Shown piece after piece: positions 5,972-63,167 of a DNA stretch of 64,000 bases. A program made the position numbers and the translations under genes. The stretch comes from an uncultured Gammaproteobacteria bacterium (GTDB lineage Bacteria; Patescibacteriota; Microgenomatia; PFEM01; JAHIFH01): NCBI GenBank assembly GCA_964653685.1, contig CAZZHA010000001.1:5794-69793 (forward strand). Direction: 5' to 3'. The notes under the pieces were generated by a model. The model saw nothing but the letters and a program-made list of their open reading frames with translations, had not been told where the DNA came from and did not search any database. Position 1 is the first letter of the stretch, and each line of letters opens with the position of its first letter.

Positions 5972-6004
5972 AGCGTCACTTTATACTCAAAATAGATTTT
6001 CCAG

Positions 6005-22756: not shown

Positions 22757-22781
22757 TTATGCTATATTTATATTTTAGCAG

Positions 22782-24920: not shown

Positions 24921-24977
24921 AGCCTATATTTTAACATTTCCAGTCTCTCAATTTTACTCTTGTGATAAAATCAGGCT

Positions 24978-27991: not shown

Positions 27992-28264
27992 TTACCTGAC
28001 CGCCTTCTTTAATGGTTTGCCTGGAGAAAATCTAGGAGCCCGATGACTTTTAACCATTTTCTTTTCACCGCTTCCAGGAACAATAACTGGCTTTTCTTTA
28101 ACCTTAGCAACTCGAAAAGTACCAAAACCAGAAAGAACGACTTTATCACCTTTTTTTAAAGCATTAGCTATTTCAGTTAAAAAAGTGTCAATTGCCTCTC
28201 GAGAAGCCCTTTTAGTTAAATGGGCCTTAGCCGCTACCAAAGTCACAATTTGTTTTTTAGTCAT
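27992..28264 (-). CDS. hup: DNA-binding protein HU
   Basis: HU/IHF fold (GFGTFRV, arm region R..PRFSPGK). Confidence 0.85.
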   Translation of the reverse strand: MTKKQIVTLVAAKAHLTKRASREAIDTFLTEIANALKKGDKVVLSGFGTFRVAKVKEKPVIVPGSGEKKMVKSHRAPRFSPGKPLKKAVR

Positions 28265-34785: not shown

Positions 34786-35034
34786 TTACTTGCCTTGAGT
34801 TTCTTTTTCCTCTTTGGTAACGTCTTCCAATTCTTCTTGAAGGGCTTTTTTATATTCTTTCAGCGCTTCAACTTCTTCTTCTTTAGATTGAGGCCATGGC
34901 CAACCGAAGTAACGTCCCATTCCCCGACCGGGAGAAAAACGACGACGCCAACCCAGACCTAGTCCACAAGGACCAAAGCCGCGACCAGTTAAAGATCCCT
35001 GACCACTCGGTCCTGTCTGATCAAATCTTGGCAT
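34786..35034 (-). CDS. DUF5320 family protein
   Basis: [24 protein letters not shown] Gly-rich single-Cys N-terminus plus acidic coiled-coil tail, as recalled for DUF5320. Confidence 0.5.
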
Positions 35035-35075: not shown

Positions 35076-35103
35076 ATTATAACACGGATAGGCGAGTTGT
35101 CAA
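35076..35103 (-). promoter_or_regulatory. strong sigma70-type promoter (TTGACA-16-TATAAT) upstream of the DUF5320-DUF134 gene string
   Basis: Read on minus strand; followed by SD GAGAGGAGGTG. Confidence 0.55.
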
Positions 35104-35126
35104 GGGTTATCTTTTTTCTAAGAGAA

Positions 35127-39224: not shown

Positions 39225-39277
39225 CGATTGAATTTTAACAAAATTTACTTACTTTTTCAAGCGTAATTAGGCATAAA

Positions 39278-49649: not shown

Positions 49650-50505
49650 TGTCTTTTGCCTCCTCAACTGGTTCTTCTTTTGTTTTTTTCTCTTTTTCCT
49701 CCACTGATTTTTCCTCCTGACCTGATTGTGGTTTGGCTTCAGTTTCTCCAGCAGCTACCAAAGCTTCTTTGGCTTCTTCTTCTCGCCGCAAACGTTCAGT
49801 TCGCTGCTCCTCGGTTTCTTCAATCTCCTTTTTACCTACCTCCATTAAAGGCACAAAACGCTTGGTCTTGCCCGTTTTGGTAATAATCAAAAGCCCGTTT
49901 TGGGCGCCTGGCACCAATCCTTTGATTAATAATTCTTCATTTTCCTTATCAATTGCCTGAATTGTCAATCCCTTGACGGCTATTCGAGCATTACCGGCCC
50001 TCCCGGGCATTTTCTTACCTTTATGAACTCTACCAGGAGTGGTGCCTTGACCAATTGAACCTGGTGCTCTTTCTCGATCAGATTGACCATGGGTTCGCGG
50101 TCCACCTTTAAAACCCCAACGCTTCACAACACCGGTAAAACCCTTACCCTTTGACCAACCAGTCACTTTTATCTGGTCGCCTGGCTGAAAAATATCAGCG
50201 ACTTTAAGCCGCTCACCCACTTTAATTTCATCCCCAAGAGGCTTCTCTAATCTAATTTCCCGCAAAAAACGAGGAGCCTTTTCTAATTTAGCTCCTCTTA
50301 AATGTCCTTTTAATGGTTTCTTAATCTTAGTCATCTTTTTTTCTCCCCAGCCGACCTGAACTGCATGATAGCCATCTTTTTTTTCATCTCGAATCTGAAC
50401 CACATAACAAGGTCCAGCCTTAATTCTGGTTACTGGTATCCTGGTGCCATCTTGAGTAAATCTCTGATTGACTTCTTTTTTTATGCCTAAGATTGTGTTT
50501 AACAT
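49642..50505 (-). CDS. rplC: 50S ribosomal protein L3 with roughly 75-aa acidic C-terminal tail (start trimmed to MLNTILG)
   Basis: L3 core FQPGDQIKVTGWSKGKGFTG...; Glu/Lys-rich tail. Confidence 0.9.
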   Translation of the reverse strand: MLNTILGIKKEVNQRFTQDGTRIPVTRIKAGPCYVVQIRDEKKDGYHAVQVGWGEKKMTKIKKPLKGHLRGAKLEKAPRFLREIRLEKPLGDEIKVGERLKVADIFQPGDQIKVTGWSKGKGFTGVVKRWGFKGGPRTHGQSDRERAPGSIGQGTTPGRVHKGKKMPGRAGNARIAVKGLTIQAIDKENEELLIKGLVPGAQNGLLIITKTGKTKRFVPLMEVGKKEIEETEEQRTERLRREEEAKEALVAAGETEAKPQSGQEEKSVEEKEKKTKEEPVEEAKDNG

Positions 50506-50510
50506 TTTGA

Positions 50511-50537
50511 CCACCAAAAAGAGTGCCGGAGGCACTC
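50511..50537 (-). promoter_or_regulatory. leader hairpin + U-run immediately upstream of the rplC RBS (possible attenuator/autoregulatory site)
   Basis: Minus strand GAGUGCC-UCCG-GCACUC followed by UUUUUGGUGG then ATG. Confidence 0.4.
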
Positions 50538-50605
50538 TTAGGGTTACTCCATTAACTAAATTAGTTTACTTTCAATAGGTGTTTAACCTCACCTCCATTA
50601 GCAAA

Positions 50606-50634
50606 TATTATAGAAAAATTCAGGATAAAAAGCA
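50606..50634 (-). promoter_or_regulatory. sigma70-type promoter for rplC-led operon (TTGCTT-17-TATAAT)
   Basis: Perfect -10 and 17-nt spacer read on minus strand, roughly 100 nt upstream of rplC start. Confidence 0.6.
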
Positions 50635-50668
50635 AGCTGATTTTATTGTGAGTAAAATTAGAGCTAAT

Positions 50669-50962
50669 TTAATCAATTCCCCAGAATTTCTTCTCGCCCT
50701 CTTCATCTGGACCAATGAATTTCAGTTGTAAAAAATCCTTTAAGTCACTAATAAAATGGCCAATGCCAAAAGAAAAAGATAATTGTCCTAAAAGATGCTG
50801 ATAAAAAAATAAACCAAGCAGCATTAACATCACCCCATAAATCCAATGATGAGGAGCCCAAGTGGGATTATTAAGTTTCATATTAAGATAATAATGGCTC
50901 CATCTTCCAAGTAGATATCCTATTAAAGCAGCAATGACGAAAAAGAGGATTTTCCAGATCAT
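50669..50962 (-). CDS. hypothetical small membrane protein
   Basis: 3 predicted TM segments; no family recognised. Confidence 0.4.
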   Translation of the reverse strand: MIWKILFFVIAALIGYLLGRWSHYYLNMKLNNPTWAPHHWIYGVMLMLLGLFFYQHLLGQLSFSFGIGHFISDLKDFLQLKFIGPDEEGEKKFWGID

Positions 50963-50990
50963 TTTCTTAATTCTACCAAACCAAACGATA

Positions 50991-51017
50991 TTGACCTTTT
51001 AATTTTTCTGCTATAAT
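50991..51017 (+). promoter_or_regulatory. promoter for 51030 gene (TTGACC-15-TGCTATAAT), 12-nt leader
   Basis: Hexamers by eye; no SD before ATG. Confidence 0.4.
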
Positions 51018-51029
51018 TATTTACATTAT

Positions 51030-51590
51030 ATGCTGGTTAAAAAAATTATTCTCATTATCCTTGCTTTAGGAGCAGTTGGTACCTTAAGTTTTTTTCTTCT
51101 TAATAAAAATAGTTTGCCAGAGGTTACTCAGCAGGTTGGGATGGAAAAAGAAAATCTCGATGACCAATGGTTAACCTATACCAATGATTCTTATCAATAC
51201 GAAATTAAGTATCACCGTGACTGGCACAAGCAGGAAGAAAATGAACCACCCTACCCTCCGCCACCTGCGGGAATGAACTTCAGCCGGCGTTGGCTTGAAC
51301 CACTAGAGGTTTGTGATTTTCAGATTTCATCAAGCGATATCGTTGATAATTTTGAAGGGGAAATTGAGAGTCTCTCCCAAGACACTAATAAGCAAATGTC
51401 TCAAGCAGTAATCGCTGGCCAAAAGGCAACCAAGTTCGTTAGTTCAACCGAAAACCAATTAGTTGAGAGCTATTACCTAACTTATAAAAGAAATTCATTT
51501 AATTTGGGATTTAATATTCTCCGAGGGGAACACTTTAATACCTGTCAACAGGTCTTTAACCAAATGATTGCTTCTTTTAAGCTTTTATAG
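51030..51590 (+). CDS. hypothetical membrane-anchored secreted protein
   Basis: N-terminal TM; PPYPPPP stretch; no family recognised. Confidence 0.4.
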   Translation: MLVKKIILIILALGAVGTLSFFLLNKNSLPEVTQQVGMEKENLDDQWLTYTNDSYQYEIKYHRDWHKQEENEPPYPPPPAGMNFSRRWLEPLEVCDFQISSSDIVDNFEGEIESLSQDTNKQMSQAVIAGQKATKFVSSTENQLVESYYLTYKRNSFNLGFNILRGEHFNTCQQVFNQMIASFKLL

Positions 51591-52272
51591 CTTTTATTAA
51601 TAATCTTGTTGGCATTGAAGAATATTTCTTATAGTCTTTTTTATTCTTTTTAGCCTTTTTACCCACAGGGGTGGGTTCTTCAACACTTAACAGTTCAAAA
51701 CCAAAACTCATAATCGTGTTTATATAGTCAGAAAACTTTTTCGGGTGATATTTAATTTCTGTTCCCCAAGGTGTTTTCTCTATCTTTGCTTTATTACTAA
51801 AGTATTCTGAATGATTACTAACAAACCGAAGTGGATGAATAGTAATAAAAAATAGATATCCTCCTTTTGCTAACCATCTAGAAATACTCTCCATTGTTTT
51901 CTTAAAATCCTTTTGACTTAAATAATTAAAAGTCATATTACTTACGACAAGGTCTAAGCTTTCATTCCGTAGTTTTAAATTAGACAAGTTTGCCTGTATA
52001 AACCTTATATTGGGAAAAGAATTTCGGGCGATATTTAGCATATCAGGACTTATGTCAGTTCCGATAAGATTTTTTTCCCTCACTCCCAAATCAAGAAGTA
52101 GTTTTATTGTTCTTCCAGTTCCACACCCAGCATCAAGAACTCGCATCTTACTTTCCAATATTGGTTTTAAATGCCTTTCCATTGCTGGTTTTTCTACAAA
52201 TTTCCAACTAAATGATTTCTCTGAAAACTGAATATATTTAGCAGCTTGCACACCTGAGTATTTTACTTTCAT
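51577..52272 (-). CDS. class I SAM-dependent methyltransferase
   Basis: Motif I VLDAGCGTGRT; motif post-I DISPDML. Confidence 0.8.
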   Translation of the reverse strand: MKVKYSGVQAAKYIQFSEKSFSWKFVEKPAMERHLKPILESKMRVLDAGCGTGRTIKLLLDLGVREKNLIGTDISPDMLNIARNSFPNIRFIQANLSNLKLRNESLDLVVSNMTFNYLSQKDFKKTMESISRWLAKGGYLFFITIHPLRFVSNHSEYFSNKAKIEKTPWGTEIKYHPKKFSDYINTIMSFGFELLSVEEPTPVGKKAKKNKKDYKKYSSMPTRLLIKAIKA

Positions 52273-52339
52273 GGGGAGTCAATTATATCACTAGCTATGT
52301 AAATACAAAAACCCAGTAAATCGGGCTTTTCTATCCCTG

Positions 52340-52367
52340 ACTCCCTATCGTGGACGAAGTTAGAACT
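52340..52367. repeat. conserved 28-bp upstream motif, copy 1 (ACTCCCTATCGTGGACGAAGTTAGAACT)
   Basis: 22/28 identical to copy at 54027-54054; lies 50 nt from TGATATAAT -10 of the methyltransferase gene. Confidence 0.7.
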
Positions 52368-52377
52368 GGTTTGAGCT

Positions 52378-52800
52378 TTAAATGCTAAGAATATAAATAC
52401 TTAATATTGCTAAAACAAGCCCTGTTATTTTTATTAATGTCAGTCTTTCGCCAAAAAATAGCAGACCAATGATCGCCGAAAAAATAATTGTAGAAATTGA
52501 CAAAAGAGGTAATCCAAGGCTAATAGGAGCCTTCTTTTGATACATCAAAAAATAAAGAAGGCTGCCAAAAGCACTAAAAATTCCTGCTAAACAAGCCAGT
52601 TTTACTCCTTTTGAGGTAATGGTTATTTCTTGACCAGTTGTTTTGAAAATAAAAATTAACCCCAAAGTAATTATTGCTGAGGCGACTGAGAGAGAAATTG
52701 ACCCAACAAGAGCATGTAGATGATTGCTGCTCAATTTAAGAAAAGCGTTGTAGATGGCAAAGAAAAAACCAGCGGCTATGCCAAAAATTACCCAATTCAT
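52378..52800 (-). CDS. EamA/SMR-like 4-TM small membrane protein (DMT superfamily half-unit)
   Basis: 140 aa, four TM helices, EamA-like spacing. Confidence 0.5.
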   Translation of the reverse strand: MNWVIFGIAAGFFFAIYNAFLKLSSNHLHALVGSISLSVASAIITLGLIFIFKTTGQEITITSKGVKLACLAGIFSAFGSLLYFLMYQKKAPISLGLPLLSISTIIFSAIIGLLFFGERLTLIKITGLVLAILSIYILSI

Positions 52801-52810
52801 GTTTTCATTA

Positions 52811-52845
52811 TACCAAACAAAAAAAGCCCATTAGCTTGGGCTTTC
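52811..52845 (-). terminator. intrinsic terminator (AAAGCCCA-AGCUAA-UGGGCUUU + U7)
   Basis: Perfect 8-bp stem then UUUUUUUGUUUGG on minus strand; immediately followed by TGGTATAAT and the EamA-like ATG. Confidence 0.7.
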
Positions 52846-52934
52846 TGAAATTAGTTCGGCCAATAAAGCCATTTACAAACTCCAAATGTAAATTGGTCCA
52901 ACCAAAAACCTTTTGCTGGGAAACCAATTTTAAA

Positions 52935-53426
52935 TCACGATCCGGCTATTTTTGTCAATTTGATAACCGTAACGACTCCATTCTTTTCATTTCCCTGAAC
53001 CCTGGCCATAGAACCAAGCTCTAATTTGCTTTTATCACAAACTTCTTCCCCACTACCCAAATCACATTTACTTGAGGCATTAAAGGCGAGATTAGCTGTG
53101 TTAGCTGGCCGACCGGGTGATTCGTAAAGCAAAACCCAATTACCAGTTTGCCTTTCGGCATTAGCATCCCAATCAGTTAAATTGCCTGTCTTATCAAAAT
53201 TCTCGACCAAAACCGGCTGGCTATCTGATTCGTCAAGGTCTTGTTCAGCCTCTTCTATTGGAGCACTTGTCTCTTCGGAACTACTACCAGTGGGTAATTG
53301 AATTCCTGGCAAATTTATTGGTTTCTTGATTATTTTTGCCCCACCATAAACGACTATGGCTCCTACCACCAAAAGAATAATCAAAATTAACAAAGCCGCT
53401 CCTTGTTCGTTTTTTGATTTTCTCAT
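52935..53426 (-). CDS. hypothetical secreted protein
   Basis: N-terminal TM/signal; SD AGGGGGTGAGG; acidic linker. Confidence 0.45.
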   Translation of the reverse strand: MRKSKNEQGAALLILIILLVVGAIVVYGGAKIIKKPINLPGIQLPTGSSSEETSAPIEEAEQDLDESDSQPVLVENFDKTGNLTDWDANAERQTGNWVLLYESPGRPANTANLAFNASSKCDLGSGEEVCDKSKLELGSMARVQGNEKNGVVTVIKLTKIAGS

Positions 53427-53469
53427 CTTTCCTCACCCCCTTTCTTTTTCCTTTAAAAGGTTCCTAATT

Positions 53470-53494
53470 CTCTCCTGTGGATAAAGTTAGAACT
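53470..53494. repeat. upstream motif, degenerate copy 2 (CTCTCCTGTGGATAAAGTTAGAACT)
   Basis: 3' half GTGGA..AAGTTAGAACT matches copy 1 at 16/18. Confidence 0.5.
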
Positions 53495-53961
53495 TACTCA
53501 CTAATTTTCTTTTCTAGACAAATATCTATCTCTAAGTACCCATTACTACGATAAAAATCCAAGGCTTCTCTATTTTCCACATAGCAATTAAGATATATTT
53601 TCTGGAAACCTTCTCGCTTTGCCCAATCTGTTATGGTGTCTAATATTTTTTTACCGATTCCTTGTTTCTTTTTTTCAGGTATTACTCCTAGATTATCAAT
53701 TTCAAAATACCTACTTTTACGATATGATACTTCTTTTTCTTCGCCATTCGCGTATCCAATCATCTGTCCATCCTCTTCAGCGATCAAAAAACACCCCTTT
53801 CTACTTCTAATTGCTTCTTTGAAATATTTCTCTCCCTGAGGGGTATAGGCAAAGTCCTCAACAGCATCTTCGTCATATTCAGAATTATTCATGAAGATTT
53901 GCTTATTCAATTTTTTTACGGCTGGTAAATCGCGGATCGTTGCTTTCCGGATAGTTATCAC
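53494..53961 (-). CDS. GNAT family N-acetyltransferase (GTG start)
   Basis: Acetyl-CoA motif A: VIPEKKKQGIGKKIL; GNAT beta strands. Confidence 0.8.
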   Translation of the reverse strand: MITIRKATIRDLPAVKKLNKQIFMNNSEYDEDAVEDFAYTPQGEKYFKEAIRSRKGCFLIAEEDGQMIGYANGEEKEVSYRKSRYFEIDNLGVIPEKKKQGIGKKILDTITDWAKREGFQKIYLNCYVENREALDFYRSNGYLEIDICLEKKISE

Positions 53962-54026
53962 AATTGAATTATATCAAAAGTGGTTCAACAATTTTTATCT
54001 GAAGTAGAACATCTATCTTCAAACTT

Positions 54027-54054
54027 ACTCCCTATCGTGGGCGATGTTCAGACT
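54027..54054. repeat. conserved 28-bp upstream motif, copy 3 (ACTCCCTATCGTGGGCGATGTTCAGACT)
   Basis: 51 nt from TGATATAAT -10 of the GNAT gene. Confidence 0.7.
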
Positions 54055-54252
54055 AGTTGGGAACAAATTTAAGCAAGAAAAATCTAATAAATGAAACCAA
54101 AGATACTTGTTCGCAGAATCACTCGGGAAGAGAGTGATTAGAGCTGGATAAATGACCGGACAAAAATTTATCATATGTTGATATAGTTATAAATAGTCTC
54201 CGCAGGAAGTCTCACTTCAGGTTTAGGAGTTTGATAGTAAGTGGTTTGTTAT

Positions 54253-55827
54253 TTATTTAAATATTTCTCTAAGAAAGCTAAGGATTTTTTGCCAAAAGGT
54301 TAGTTTTGTTTCAGACAAAGGAGTAATTATTGGTTCTGGATTTGAAGTAATTTGTGGTGTGGGACTTGGTTGTTGTTCTATTTTTTCTTTAATCAGTTCT
54401 GTTGTCTGACCCAAGACTTCATTTTCCGAGGTTGTCTTTTTAGCTACAGCCAATTTTTCAGTTTTGGCAGAAATGTAATTAGACCACCTTCCCGGAGCGC
54501 AGCCGTTGCCGGCTCTGATTGTAAAATAATAGGTAGTGCTTGGGGCAAGAGCTTTTATAGTGTAGTTGACTACTCCAATCTTTTGAGCGGAATTAAATTG
54601 GGTGCCAAAACGCCAGTCGCCTTCCTTATAACCATAGGCAATAAAATAATAGGAAACATAATCGGTAACCGGCATAAAATATAAAGTGGCGGAATTTTCA
54701 GTGGTATCAATTTGAAATAATTTTGGCGCAGTTAAAGGCGGCCAATCTCCACAACCAAGGGCAGAAGTAGAACTTGTAGAAGTAGAACCGGTATCTTCTG
54801 CTACCGTAAAAGTAGTGAAATGGGCAGCCGTAAAAGTAACTAAATGAGTCGTTCGGTTATAACTTAATCCGGACACAATGCCACCAGTATCAGTTTGTCC
54901 ATCAACTAATATTTTTGGGCTGTTTAGGGTAATACTATACATCGTTAAAGAAGCTTGGGTATCGGTTAAATCTTTAATGAGGTCAGCGTCAAGGCTGATT
55001 ACTCCCTGGGAAATGCTTAATTTGCTGTCTAATGATTGCATCCAGGTCAAAGCATCGCGATCAGTGAAATTCATCTCCGCCAAAAAAGTTATTTTGCCAA
55101 TGTTTTCTCCACCTTCACTTTTCAGGAAATATAATCCGGAGATACGGGAAAAGTCGCCTTGATCGCCTAAGTTTGTGGCTACACCTTCATTGGTCATTTG
55201 TGTAGTAATAGTACTGATTGTTGGACATTCACCAGAACCTGGGTTGCACCATCCGCGAGTAGGAGAAGCGGCCGAATTCCAGGTTTGTTCATCTAAGTTG
55301 TAATAGGCAGATTTGCCTTGTTCTATGGTAACGCCAGTGGCGTCACTCGGATCAGCACCAGGATCACAAGTTTCGCTACCGTACTTTACGGCATAAACAC
55401 TATTGCTCTCATCTCTGAAAATTACCAAACAGGCGCCATCATCAGGGATACGAGTGTCATTATCGGTCGCGAAAGTCAAAAAACCGCCGCGGGGGACGCT
55501 CCCACTTAAATCTTGTGAATAGAAATAAGTGTAGTTTGGTTCTGTACCCTGATAAATTACCAATCTCCACCCGGAAAGACTAAGAGCTGTGTCCTGATCA
55601 GGATTTAGCAGCTCAATCCATTCTTCGCCGCCAGCACTAGGCTGCGCTACAAACTCGTCAATCATTACCACAGGATCACCATTTGCCCTTACCGGAGAAA
55701 TTCTTACGACAACGGCAAAAAAAGAGAAACAAAGAAGAAGCAGAAAAACAAAAACTAGTTTTTTCATCACTAAAAACATTTTTACCTTTTTTGATAAAAA
55801 TGTCAACATCTTATCCATCCACCACAT
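54253..55827 (-). CDS. secreted lamin-tail-domain (LTD) + fibronectin type III surface protein (likely true start M21, about 55767)
   Basis: LTD signature EFVAQPSAGGEEWIELLNP...LSLSGWRL; C-terminal FN3-like region. Confidence 0.55.
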   Translation of the reverse strand: MWWMDKMLTFLSKKVKMFLVMKKLVFVFLLLLCFSFFAVVVRISPVRANGDPVVMIDEFVAQPSAGGEEWIELLNPDQDTALSLSGWRLVIYQGTEPNYTYFYSQDLSGSVPRGGFLTFATDNDTRIPDDGACLVIFRDESNSVYAVKYGSETCDPGADPSDATGVTIEQGKSAYYNLDEQTWNSAASPTRGWCNPGSGECPTISTITTQMTNEGVATNLGDQGDFSRISGLYFLKSEGGENIGKITFLAEMNFTDRDALTWMQSLDSKLSISQGVISLDADLIKDLTDTQASLTMYSITLNSPKILVDGQTDTGGIVSGLSYNRTTHLVTFTAAHFTTFTVAEDTGSTSTSSTSALGCGDWPPLTAPKLFQIDTTENSATLYFMPVTDYVSYYFIAYGYKEGDWRFGTQFNSAQKIGVVNYTIKALAPSTTYYFTIRAGNGCAPGRWSNYISAKTEKLAVAKKTTSENEVLGQTTELIKEKIEQQPSPTPQITSNPEPIITPLSETKLTFWQKILSFLREIFK

Positions 55828-57312: not shown

Positions 57313-57621
57313 TTACATCTTGATTTCAATATCAACGCCTGCGGGCATTTCGAGGTGCATTAAGGAGTCAATTGTTTTACTAGTTGGTTCAAGAATATCA
57401 ATTAATCTTTTATGAGTAAGAATTTGGAATTGTTCTCTGGCGTCTTTGTCAGTGTGGGGACTGGTGGTAACCGTAATCAGTTTTCGGTGGGTTGGTAAAG
57501 GCACAGGACCCACTACCTTGGCACCACTAGCTAAGGCTGTTTCTAAGATTTTTTCGCAACTTTCATCGATGACTCGATGATCATACGCTTTTAAACGTAC
57601 CCTTATTCTGCCTTTTGGCAT
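57313..57621 (-). CDS. rpsJ: 30S ribosomal protein S10
   Basis: [15 protein letters not shown] motif. Confidence 0.9.
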
Positions 57622-61017: not shown

Positions 61018-61132
61018 CTTTCTGTCTTTATTTTATCAATTTTTAGGCAAATAAAAAACCGCCTCTGTCAAGAAGTAGGTTTGCTTCGAGTTTATTCTAA
61101 CAAAATCCTATTGATTACTCAAACGTAATGTC

Positions 61133-61489
61133 CTAATAACCTCGTTCCTTCCCTGAACTCCTTGTTTTCTCAAACAACTCTTGTTGAATCTCATCATCTT
61201 CTGTTTCGAAATGATGGTCGCTTGCAAAATCTCTTACTTCCATCATTCCAAACATGCCTGAACCATCAAAAACAACAAAAGTGCCATGTTGAGGTAATCT
61301 ACAATTACCTACGACCCTATTAGTTTGGTGGTGTTCAATGCAAAGCTCGGTTAAATCACCTTCAGCTCTGATAACCAGTCTATCCTTCATCCAAGCAACC
61401 ATCTCACTCCTTCTAAGGGAAAATGAACCTTCTATTTCGTCCCAACAATCCCGACAGATTGCCTTTGCTGTGGGTTTTCTAATCGACAT
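61133..61489 (-). CDS. hypothetical Cys-containing protein (118 aa)
   Basis: CRDCW...C...C; acidic tail; no family recognised. Confidence 0.35.
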   Translation of the reverse strand: MSIRKPTAKAICRDCWDEIEGSFSLRRSEMVAWMKDRLVIRAEGDLTELCIEHHQTNRVVGNCRLPQHGTFVVFDGSGMFGMMEVRDFASDHHFETEDDEIQQELFEKTRSSGKERGY

Positions 61490-61550
61490 AAACTAAAAAA
61501 TTGCTTTTGGGCAGGTAATAAAATAAAAATAATAGAATCCTGACTTCTAT

Positions 61551-62126
61551 TCAAAAACCTCTTTGTCGGTAAAGCTTAGGATCAATCACCTTTACCATAG
61601 CTTGAGTATCAAGAGTTTCATCTAAAAATTGGTTAATCTTTTTTACTTGACTCGCTGGCTTTTTCAAAACTTGATTATAGTTAATATAGATGACTTCAAT
61701 ATTGGGTTGCTTGCCCAACCATAATTTAACCTCTTTTAAATGCTTTTTGAATAAGGTAGCCATCTTTTTATCACTGGCTTTATTCACTGGTTTGCCTCTT
61801 CTTTTAAGCATTTGTCTTTGGGAAGCAAGAATCTCTTCCATCTTCCGTTGCATAAAAATTACTTTGTAATTGTAGTCTTTGGGTAAATATTTTAAGAATT
61901 CAGACACCATCTTAACGGTCTTACCTTGAACCTGTTTAAGCCAAGTTTTATCCCGCCTAATCTGTTTAACTTTTTCAAATTCATAATAACCTTTAGGGTT
62001 ATCCTCATCGGCCTTTCTCAGATTATCTGTCAAAACAGACATCCCACCGGCTTTCATCATCTTCATCATCATTGAGGTACCAGAACGAGGTAAACCAGAA
62101 ACAATCGTAACCGTTTTTTGTTTCAT
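61551..62126 (-). CDS. sulfotransferase-family protein
   Basis: 5'-PSB loop IVSGLPRSGTSMM resembles PRSGTT of PAPS-dependent sulfotransferases; roughly 190 aa. Confidence 0.45.
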   Translation of the reverse strand: MKQKTVTIVSGLPRSGTSMMMKMMKAGGMSVLTDNLRKADEDNPKGYYEFEKVKQIRRDKTWLKQVQGKTVKMVSEFLKYLPKDYNYKVIFMQRKMEEILASQRQMLKRRGKPVNKASDKKMATLFKKHLKEVKLWLGKQPNIEVIYINYNQVLKKPASQVKKINQFLDETLDTQAMVKVIDPKLYRQRGF

Positions 62127-62162
62127 TAAGTCAATTTTAGCAAACGTCGTGAATAAAAAAAG

Positions 62163-63123: not shown

Positions 63124-63167
63124 ATTTTTATTTTATCACGAATTTAGGTTCAAATAAAGGAGTTTTT

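Follow-up and report, generated by a model that had tools for sequence, protein, structure and literature searches.

Extended -10 boxes adjoining start codons suggest a leaderless layout of transcription units in a Microgenomates genome

How are genes transcribed and translated when they sit inside a ribosomal-protein operon with a -10 box almost touching the start codon and with no Shine-Dalgarno (SD) sequence? The question is raised by a stretch of 64,000 nucleotides (nt), here called the window, from contig CAZZHA010000001.1 (assembly GCA_964653685.1, positions 5,794 to 69,793). On its minus strand the genes run in the order rpsL, rpsG, a sulfotransferase gene and an open reading frame (ORF) of 118 amino acids, fusA, tuf, rpsJ, about 6.8 kb of non-ribosomal genes, rplC, rplD, rplW and rplB. 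The 6.8 kb between rpsJ (57313-57621) and rplC (start at about 50505-50535) are an insertion relative to the usual rpsJ-rplC adjacency and are called the island below. According to the original prediction, genes of this island use extended -10 promoters (TGnTATAAT) that abut the start codon, which implied leaderless mRNAs. A TG one base upstream of the -10 hexamer, the extended -10 element, compensates for a poor -35 box. The window has a G+C content of 38% and matches contig MHDD01000026.1 (GCA_001803445.1) with 99.9% identity; scaffolds from the Rifle aquifer metagenome also match. The encoded EF-G and methyltransferase are deposited under Microgenomates group bacterium RBG_19FT_COMBO_39_10, a member of the Candidate Phyla Radiation (CPR). 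The boxes are probably working extended -10 promoters from which transcription starts at the start codon or a few nucleotides before it, in a leaderless layout that is found across the lineage. Judged by its sequence features, this layout is normal for about one third of the transcription-unit heads in the organism and its Microgenomates relatives, with GGAGG-type SD sequences serving the operon-internal genes.

All five island boxes carry the TGn extension. Upstream of the gene for a small EamA-type membrane protein (52378-52800, minus strand, 140 amino acids) the box TGGTATAAT (52807-52815, minus strand) ends 6 nt (GAAAAC) before ATG 52800, with C at position -1. As originally predicted, it stands right after an intrinsic terminator (52821-52846, minus strand; 10-bp stem, 6-nt loop, T7 run), which ends 5 nt before the box, and the would-be -35 position falls inside the terminator hairpin. 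The GNAT acetyltransferase gene (53494-53961, minus strand, 155 amino acids) has the box TGATATAAT (53968-53976, minus strand) 6 nt (TCAATT) before GTG 53961, for which a leaderless GUG is predicted. The same box, TGATATAAT, is found at 52282-52290 (minus strand), 9 nt (TGACTCCCC) before ATG 52272 of a class I S-adenosylmethionine-dependent methyltransferase gene (51577-52272, minus strand, 231 amino acids); this ATG is the first possible start, and an in-frame TGA lies 9 nt upstream. The best pyrimidine-purine step within the run TGACTCCCC-A coincides with the ATG, 10 nt after the box; if transcription began at one of the C's before it, the leader would measure 1-3 nt. Overall, a leader of about 0-3 nt is predicted. 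On the plus strand, the box TGCTATAAT (51009-51017) lies 12 nt before ATG 51030 of an ORF of 186 amino acids (51030-51590) whose product has a hydrophobic stretch near its N-terminus and matches PsbP_2 weakly. No in-frame start exists further upstream, and an in-frame TAA is present at 51000-51002. The "12-nt leader" first ascribed to this gene is in fact the gap between box and ATG; the spacer TATTTACATTAT predicts a transcription start at A6 or A8 and with it a near-leaderless mRNA with a leader of about 5-7 nt. The fifth case is the box TGGTAGAAT (50970-50978, minus strand), 7 nt before ATG 50962 of a gene for a membrane protein of 97 amino acids (50669-50962, minus strand); a spacer of 67 nt separates this gene from the divergently oriented 51030 gene.

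The four TGnTATAAT boxes initially described were all located in place, 6, 6, 9 and 12 nt before the first possible start, and no SD-like motif was detected at the EamA, GNAT, methyltransferase or 51030 genes. The SD sequences named for contrast were also found: AAGGAGG at hup (27992-28264), and GGGGGTGAGG (53431-53440, minus strand) 4 nt before ATG 53426 of a gene of 163 amino acids (52935-53426), which has no -10 box adjoining its start. By its spacing the exact leaderless geometry is seen, among these four genes, at EamA and GNAT only; the claim of leaderless mRNAs stands for these two, and short leaders are predicted for the other two. Where the island is peculiar is in boxes that match the full TATAAT consensus, and in this alone.

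The geometry depends on correct start codons. For every island gene the start adjoining the box is the first possible start of the ORF. The GTG of the GNAT gene had been doubted, a leaderless GTG start being unusual; 18 of 20 aligned homologues begin at the same M-I-T-I-R position, and all but three of 31 homologues have 152-158 amino acids, from which the GTG is taken as the true start. Orthologues have ATG at that position, so the GTG of the window appears as an ATG-to-GTG change at the predicted +1. Leaderless GUG is poorly translated in Escherichia coli and Caulobacter and about equal to AUG in mycobacteria (PMC4633059, PMC8459731). In a public assembly of the same species (locus L005, 566-964) the GNAT gene is called from the internal Met24, which gives 132 instead of 155 amino acids and loses 23 residues; this is probably an annotation error caused by the missing SD. 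Homologues aligned with 100% coverage have lengths of 140 amino acids for EamA and 230-234 amino acids for the methyltransferase. Pfam profiles begin at residues 2-8 in EamA (residue 2), the MiaB-like protein, UppP and IF-1, and the S12 alignment, which covers about 70 loci, begins at residue 1.

The spacing between box and start was then evaluated statistically. On both strands together the window holds five TGnTATAAT sites, four of them in the island, and each of the five has a same-strand gene start no more than about 42 nt downstream, a situation that holds for 4% of positions. For the relaxed form TGnTAnAAT, 14 of the window's 28 sites have a same-strand start at most 60 nt downstream (4% expected), 11 of them at most 12 nt and eight at 6-7 nt; permuted control motifs of matched composition gave 0 of 12 near starts. 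A start-agnostic spacing histogram was blurred by the 3-nt periodicity of in-frame internal ATGs, and counts at gene starts together with shuffles were used instead. The hexamer TANNNT stands 6-7 nt from the start in 17 of 79 genes, where about 2.4 are expected from internal ATGs, and TANAAT in nine, where 0.3 are expected. When each upstream region (40 nt) was subjected to 300 dinucleotide shuffles, the counts at 6-7 nt were 17 vs 4.6 for TANNNT (z = 6.0), 8 vs 0.6 for TANAAT (z = 9.8) and 7 vs 0.25 for TGnTANNNT (z = 13.4). A scan for consensus -35/-10 pairs found fewer promoter-like sites in the window than in shuffles and missed all of the start-adjoining boxes, because these lack a -35 hexamer.

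Outside the island the same layout is found at rpsL, infA, two aminoacyl-tRNA synthetase genes, uppP, a miaB-like gene and the inserted sulfotransferase gene. The box TGATAAAAT (63130-63138, minus strand) lies 6 nt before ATG 63123 of rpsL, which encodes S12; TGCTAAAAT (62134-62142, minus strand) 7 nt before ATG 62126 of the sulfotransferase gene between rpsG and fusA; and TGTTAAAAT (39232-39240, minus strand) 7 nt before ATG 39224 of infA, which encodes IF-1. The spacing is also 7 nt at the Asp/Asn-tRNA synthetase gene and at uppP. Back-to-back -10 boxes occupy divergent spacers of 33, 25, 57 and 67 nt (5972-6004, 22757-22781, 24921-24977 and 50963-51029). In the 57-nt spacer (boxes at 24928-24971), TGTTAAAAT on the minus strand precedes ATG 24920 of the miaB-like gene by 7 nt and TGATAAAAT on the plus strand precedes ATG 24978 by 6 nt; in the 33-nt spacer (boxes at 5978-5998), TAAAGT on the minus strand lies 6 nt before gltX ATG 5971 and TAGATT on the plus strand 6 nt before ATG 6005. 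The two promoters of each short divergent spacer must overlap or touch, and spacers of 25-67 nt with back-to-back boxes leave no room for leaders.

The layout is thus not the island trait that it was first taken for, since the same geometry is present at housekeeping genes and across Microgenomates-like loci, and the surmise that leaderless initiation may be common in the organism fits the 17 of 79 starts with TANNNT at 6-7 nt and the 13 of 39 operon heads with the motif. The similar layout claimed for recA is there in part: a box is present, though in the imperfect form TGT-AAAAAT and with a gap of 8 nt, not 9. The fifth TGnTATAAT site (35076-35084, minus strand) belongs to a full consensus promoter, TTGACA-16 nt-TGTTATAAT (35076-35113), with some 40 nt of leader and the strong SD GAGAGGAGGTGA before a DUF5320 ORF of 82 amino acids (34786-35034, minus strand). 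This suggests that in this genome TGnTATAAT acts as a promoter and that mRNAs with a leader and an SD coexist with the others; the site can be used as an internal positive control when promoters are to be recognised here.

Whether the layout extends beyond this organism was asked of comparison loci collected by a scan based on EF-G, with one genome per species: about 38 Microgenomates-like loci (Levybacteria, Roizmanbacteria, Woesebacteria and similar; EF-G identity 61-69%; 705 called genes) and about 36 non-CPR loci with the same operon, mostly from Firmicutes and some from Acidobacteria and Nitrospirae. In the Microgenomates-like loci TANAAT occurs 34, 16 and 14 times at 6, 7 and 8 nt over a background of about 3 (z = 18), and at 6-7 nt the counts are 110 vs 42 in shuffles for TANNNT (z = 10) and 30 vs 2 for TGnTANNNT (z = 20). 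The relatives also show a tail at 8-12 nt, into which the methyltransferase and 51030 genes fall. No spacing peak (z about 0) was detected in the 36 non-CPR loci. SD-like motifs precede 59% of the genes in the non-CPR loci vs 19% in the Microgenomates-like loci. In ten further loci, reached via orthologues of island genes, TGnTANNNT stands at 6-7 nt in 17 of 60 genes. Six loci of other CPR classes (Saccharibacteria, Parcubacteria and Peregrinibacteria: L046, L048, L053, L056, L058 and L062), a very small sample, have no 6-7 nt peak, and SD-like motifs were found in only 3 of their 106 genes. From this small sample the layout seems to be confined, within the radiation, to its Microgenomates side, and the Saccharibacteria, Parcubacteria and Peregrinibacteria loci hint at yet another mode of initiation. 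The anti-SD sequence is reported to be lost in some Parcubacteria (PMC9297842). A full-text literature search returned no account of leaderless genes from CPR or Patescibacteria.

A -10 box and an AU-rich translation signal could look alike, and several features separate the two. In the window the motif is present at 13 of 39 operon heads vs 3 of 42 internal genes (p = 0.004), and after pooling with the related loci at 90 of 418 vs 28 of 340 (p = 3e-7). Restriction to operon heads is the criterion that separates group C from group B of GeneMarkS-2, group C having a Pribnow box 6-8 nt before the start of genes that come first in operons (PMC6028130). SD-like motifs are found, in the pooled set, at 5 of 127 leaderless-type genes vs 156 of 661 others (p = 2e-8) and are enriched at internal genes. 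The logo of the aligned sites reads T-G-n-T-A-t-a-a-T, with T1, A2 and T6 invariant and with T at 54% and G at 42% in the extension vs a background of 30% and 19%; the -35 region shows only a weak TTG at 17-nt spacing. The base at -1 is C in 39% of the sites vs 14-16% elsewhere (p = 2e-6). Pyrimidines as a class are not significantly enriched at -1 (p = 0.08), because T is common at this position everywhere. The 127 pooled leaderless-type starts comprise 113 ATG, 10 GTG and 4 TTG; the ratio of GTG to TTG is 10:4 vs 17:34 elsewhere (p = 0.015), a bias that is expected if +1 must be a purine. At a spacing of 6-7 nt the start codon's A or G stands 7-8 nt downstream of the -10 box, where the canonical +1 is located. 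The modal bacterial transcription start is centred 7 bp after the -10 box (PMC12641261), and C is preferred at -1 of mycobacterial transcription start sites (PMC4633059). Both C at -1 and the bias for GTG fit the first base of the start codon as the transcription start.

Orthologues in unrelated contexts were examined for the same arrangement. Four GNAT orthologues, with protein identities of 85, 74, 61 and 63%, read TTGGTATAAT-TCAATT-ATG, TTGATATAAT-CCAATT-ATG, TTGGTAGAAT-AAAAGT-ATG and ATGCTAAAAT-AATCCC-ATG: the spacing is exactly 6 nt and TGn is present in all four, and the sequence further upstream is unrelated. Three methyltransferase orthologues (80, 67 and 60% identity) read AGTATAAT-TAGCCCC-ATG, AGTATAAT-TAGTTCA-GTG and TGATATAAT-TCGGTT-ATG; beside these layouts of 6-7 nt, the window's methyltransferase, with 9 nt, resembles a variant that is longer by 2 nt. 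One EamA orthologue (L097) has TGATATAAT-TAAATCA-ATG with the box within the 3' end of an upstream lytR-type gene, and another has TGATACAAT-GTTTT-ATG in a 37-nt divergent spacer. At all three genes the orthologues retain TGnTAnAAT at 5-7 nt, and their remaining upstream DNA has diverged. To judge from these alignments, the promoter evidently travels with the gene. A metagenome scan for EamA gave two contigs only, from a lineage already sampled, and a metagenome scan for relatives of the 51030 protein gave none, so that its 12-nt spacing stands without comparison. Contigs of the same species (L001-L006) are 99.1-99.9% identical, show no single-nucleotide polymorphisms in the boxes and are uninformative on constraint.

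As a mechanism it is proposed that a sigma-70-type holoenzyme would recognise TGnTAnAAT with weak or no -35 contact. Transcription would begin with the start codon's first base at EamA, GNAT, the 97-amino-acid gene, rpsL, infA and others, and a few bases before it at the methyltransferase and 51030 genes; predicted mRNA 5' ends are therefore 52800, 53961, 50962, 63123, 39224 and other starts. The resulting mRNAs would have no room for an SD sequence, and, if other bacteria are a guide, a 70S ribosome carrying initiator tRNA would bind directly to their 5'-terminal AUG or GUG. That 70S ribosomes bind start codons at the 5' end has been established for E. coli, mycobacteria and Caulobacter (PMC4633059, PMC8459731, PMC9031893). 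Because promoter and start fit into about 18 nt, the promoter would travel with its gene and the island genes would be self-contained units, EamA with an upstream terminator in addition.

The leaderless reading is supported by every computational test available, all of them made on sequence, and three other explanations were weighed beside it. That the boxes are chance TATAAT-like hexamers in AT-rich intergenic DNA, or owe their position to mis-assigned start codons, was tested and rejected, and has next to no probability left. A genome of 38% G+C does offer many such hexamers, TANNNT alone occurring about 2,500 times in the window, but the dinucleotide shuffles gave z-scores of 6-20 in the window and related loci, the non-CPR control loci are without a peak, and the start codons are borne out by the N-termini of homologues and by where Pfam profiles begin. 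The original prediction had named chance occurrence of the hexamers, with no genome-wide enrichment at the spacing to the start, as what would speak against it; in the window the 6-7 nt spacing proved enriched. It is also very unlikely that the boxes are real but secondary promoters, the main mRNAs being leadered and read through from upstream and the leaderless species being minor. The minus-strand island genes, co-oriented with gaps of 67-291 nt, are arranged as read-through would have it, and a single clean terminator was detected; that terminator, however, is a strong one and directly precedes the EamA box, many other cases are divergent pairs in which read-through is impossible, and there is no SD to translate a read-through RNA. 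The position of the L097 EamA promoter inside the 3' end of its upstream neighbour also speaks for read-through, yet the box moves with the gene among different neighbours.

Very unlikely, finally, is that the TAnAAT-like motif is an AU-rich, non-SD translation signal of the GeneMarkS-2 group B type on leadered mRNAs whose transcription starts further upstream. The motif is A/T-rich and located where a ribosome-binding site would be, but it is confined to operon heads, with GGAGG at internal genes (the criterion of PMC6028130), and its invariant T1, A2 and T6 with the upstream TG are the signature of a sigma-70 -10 and extended -10 element. Non-SD initiation does exist in the radiation, as the nearly SD-free loci of other CPR classes indicate (3 of 106 genes), and conservation among orthologues alone cannot tell a promoter from a ribosome-binding site. 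C at -1 and the preference for GTG over TTG, on the other hand, are properties of transcription starts; TGnTATAAT, together with a full TTGACA, drives a leadered, SD-bearing gene at 35076-35084; and divergent spacers of 25-57 nt offer promoters no other place.

Several points weigh against the leaderless reading itself. The transcription start sites are inferred from geometry alone, and the mode of translation by analogy. Gaps of 9 and 12 nt at two of the four genes first described predict short leaders, and in Caulobacter each added leader nucleotide cuts leaderless translation about 2-fold (PMC8459731), so that the methyltransferase and 51030 genes may be less efficiently expressed; alternatively, this organism may tolerate short leaders. 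The EamA orthologue of L098 has only a weak TATGCT box. The spacing of the rpsL box is labile: it is 6 nt in the window and 10-12 nt in loci of Levybacteria, and Roizmanbacteria-like loci lack the box; the rpsL start codon itself is conserved. Gene calls in the fetched loci were made by a simple longest-ORF heuristic, and several of the Microgenomates-like records are titled with other taxon names. In Roizmanbacteria-like loci (L013, L016, L017, L024-L026, L032, L034, L038, L039 and L041) a conserved coding gene stops 2-3 nt before the rpsL ATG, without an SD, which suggests translational coupling or re-initiation at this gene, not a promoter.

The island was also considered as a mobile or horizontally acquired element, and this was rejected: no integrase or transposase domains were found among the island proteins, no tRNA lies near the island, and there is no strong shift in composition, the G+C content being slightly lower at 34-38% vs 38-44%. 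The window has two inserts in the str/S10 operon, one between S7 and EF-G (61018-62162; the sulfotransferase gene and the 118-amino-acid ORF) and one between S10 and L3 (50536-57312; 6.8 kb). Inserts of more than 600 nt are found in the Microgenomates-like loci (L007-L044) between S7 and EF-G in 7 of 27, between EF-G and EF-Tu in 14 of 21 and between S10 and L3 in 3 of 15, and in the non-CPR loci in 0 of 35, 3 of 30 and 0 of 17, respectively. A repeat of about 35 nt with the core ACTCCCTATCGTGGRCGAWGTT is present at 52337-52371 and 54024-54058 and, in a weaker form, at 53464-53498; the degenerate core is matched exactly twice, where chance would give no match. The island genes for EamA, an LTD/fn3 protein and GNAT, all on the minus strand, each have a copy close by on their 3' side, and the repeat has been seen in contigs of the same species only.

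The rplC gene is leadered (about 50505-50640, minus strand): downstream of TTGCTT-17 nt-TATAAT comes a leader of about 95 nt, in which there are a mini-ORF, ATGGAGGTGAGGTTAAACACCTATTGA, and a GC hairpin with a U-run (about 50536-50562). An SD-like GGTGGTC and ATG 50505 follow about 10 nt beyond the end of this hairpin. About 125 nt of this region are 95% identical in another species (L099), in which the DNA further upstream is unrelated. The rplC leader is a candidate ribosomal-protein leader or attenuator, with a fold z-score of -1.3. Rfam searches returned nothing for the island, including the repeat, or for the rplC leader (whole window at the gathering threshold; 50400-54300 at E<=1).

If the leaderless reading is true, the layout gives a simple reason for small self-contained genes inside ribosomal-protein operons, and portability within about 18 nt could explain how accessory genes are inserted in conserved str/S10 operons without silencing themselves. 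Gene-start calling in CPR metagenome-assembled genomes would improve, as the GNAT call from Met24 illustrates. The result suggests that ultra-small CPR bacteria with reduced ribosomes rely heavily on SD-independent, 70S-type initiation, and the translation biology of CPR would be linked to that of mycobacteria, Deinococcus and Mollicutes. A wider picture is offered tentatively, as possible rather than likely: the Microgenomates would be a low-GC lineage with the standard code in which about one third of transcription units are leaderless by means of extended -10 promoters with a weak or absent -35 element, the promoter-start unit of about 18 nt being portable with its gene and sometimes insulated by a terminator, and other CPR classes would be SD-poor with a different mode of initiation.

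Among known systems the layout resembles that of group C genomes (mycobacteria, Deinococcus, Streptomyces), in which TANNNT lies 6-8 nt before operon-first genes without SD, SD sequences serve internal genes, about 25-50% of transcription units are affected and ATG or GTG stands at +1 (PMC6028130, PMC4633059). Unlike the published group C genomes with genetic code 11, which are almost all of high G+C content (bioRxiv 10.1101/2022.07.25.500264), this genome combines code 11 with 38% G+C, and its -10 element is close to the full TATAAT/TAAAAT consensus with a frequent TGn extension. The Mollicutes (Mycoplasma, also group C) share a reduced genome of low G+C content and a -10 motif near starts, with 30-60% of transcripts predicted to be leaderless (bioRxiv 10.1101/2022.07.25.500264); they use code 4, whereas this organism uses code 11. 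Since the Mollicutes and this lineage are unrelated, the similarity would be convergent. With the extended -10 promoters of E. coli and Gram-positive bacteria the boxes share the TG and the weak -35 element, but those of E. coli normally give leadered mRNAs, whereas here the boxes are phased 6-7 nt from the start codon. The classic leaderless mRNA of E. coli is that of lambda cI from PRM, whose first base is the A of the AUG and which lacks an SD. It is an isolated and inefficient case in E. coli; here the architecture appears as routine and includes the housekeeping genes rpsL, infA and gltX. The mechanism is already well known and the lineage is new for it, so that the advance is one of scope, not of kind.

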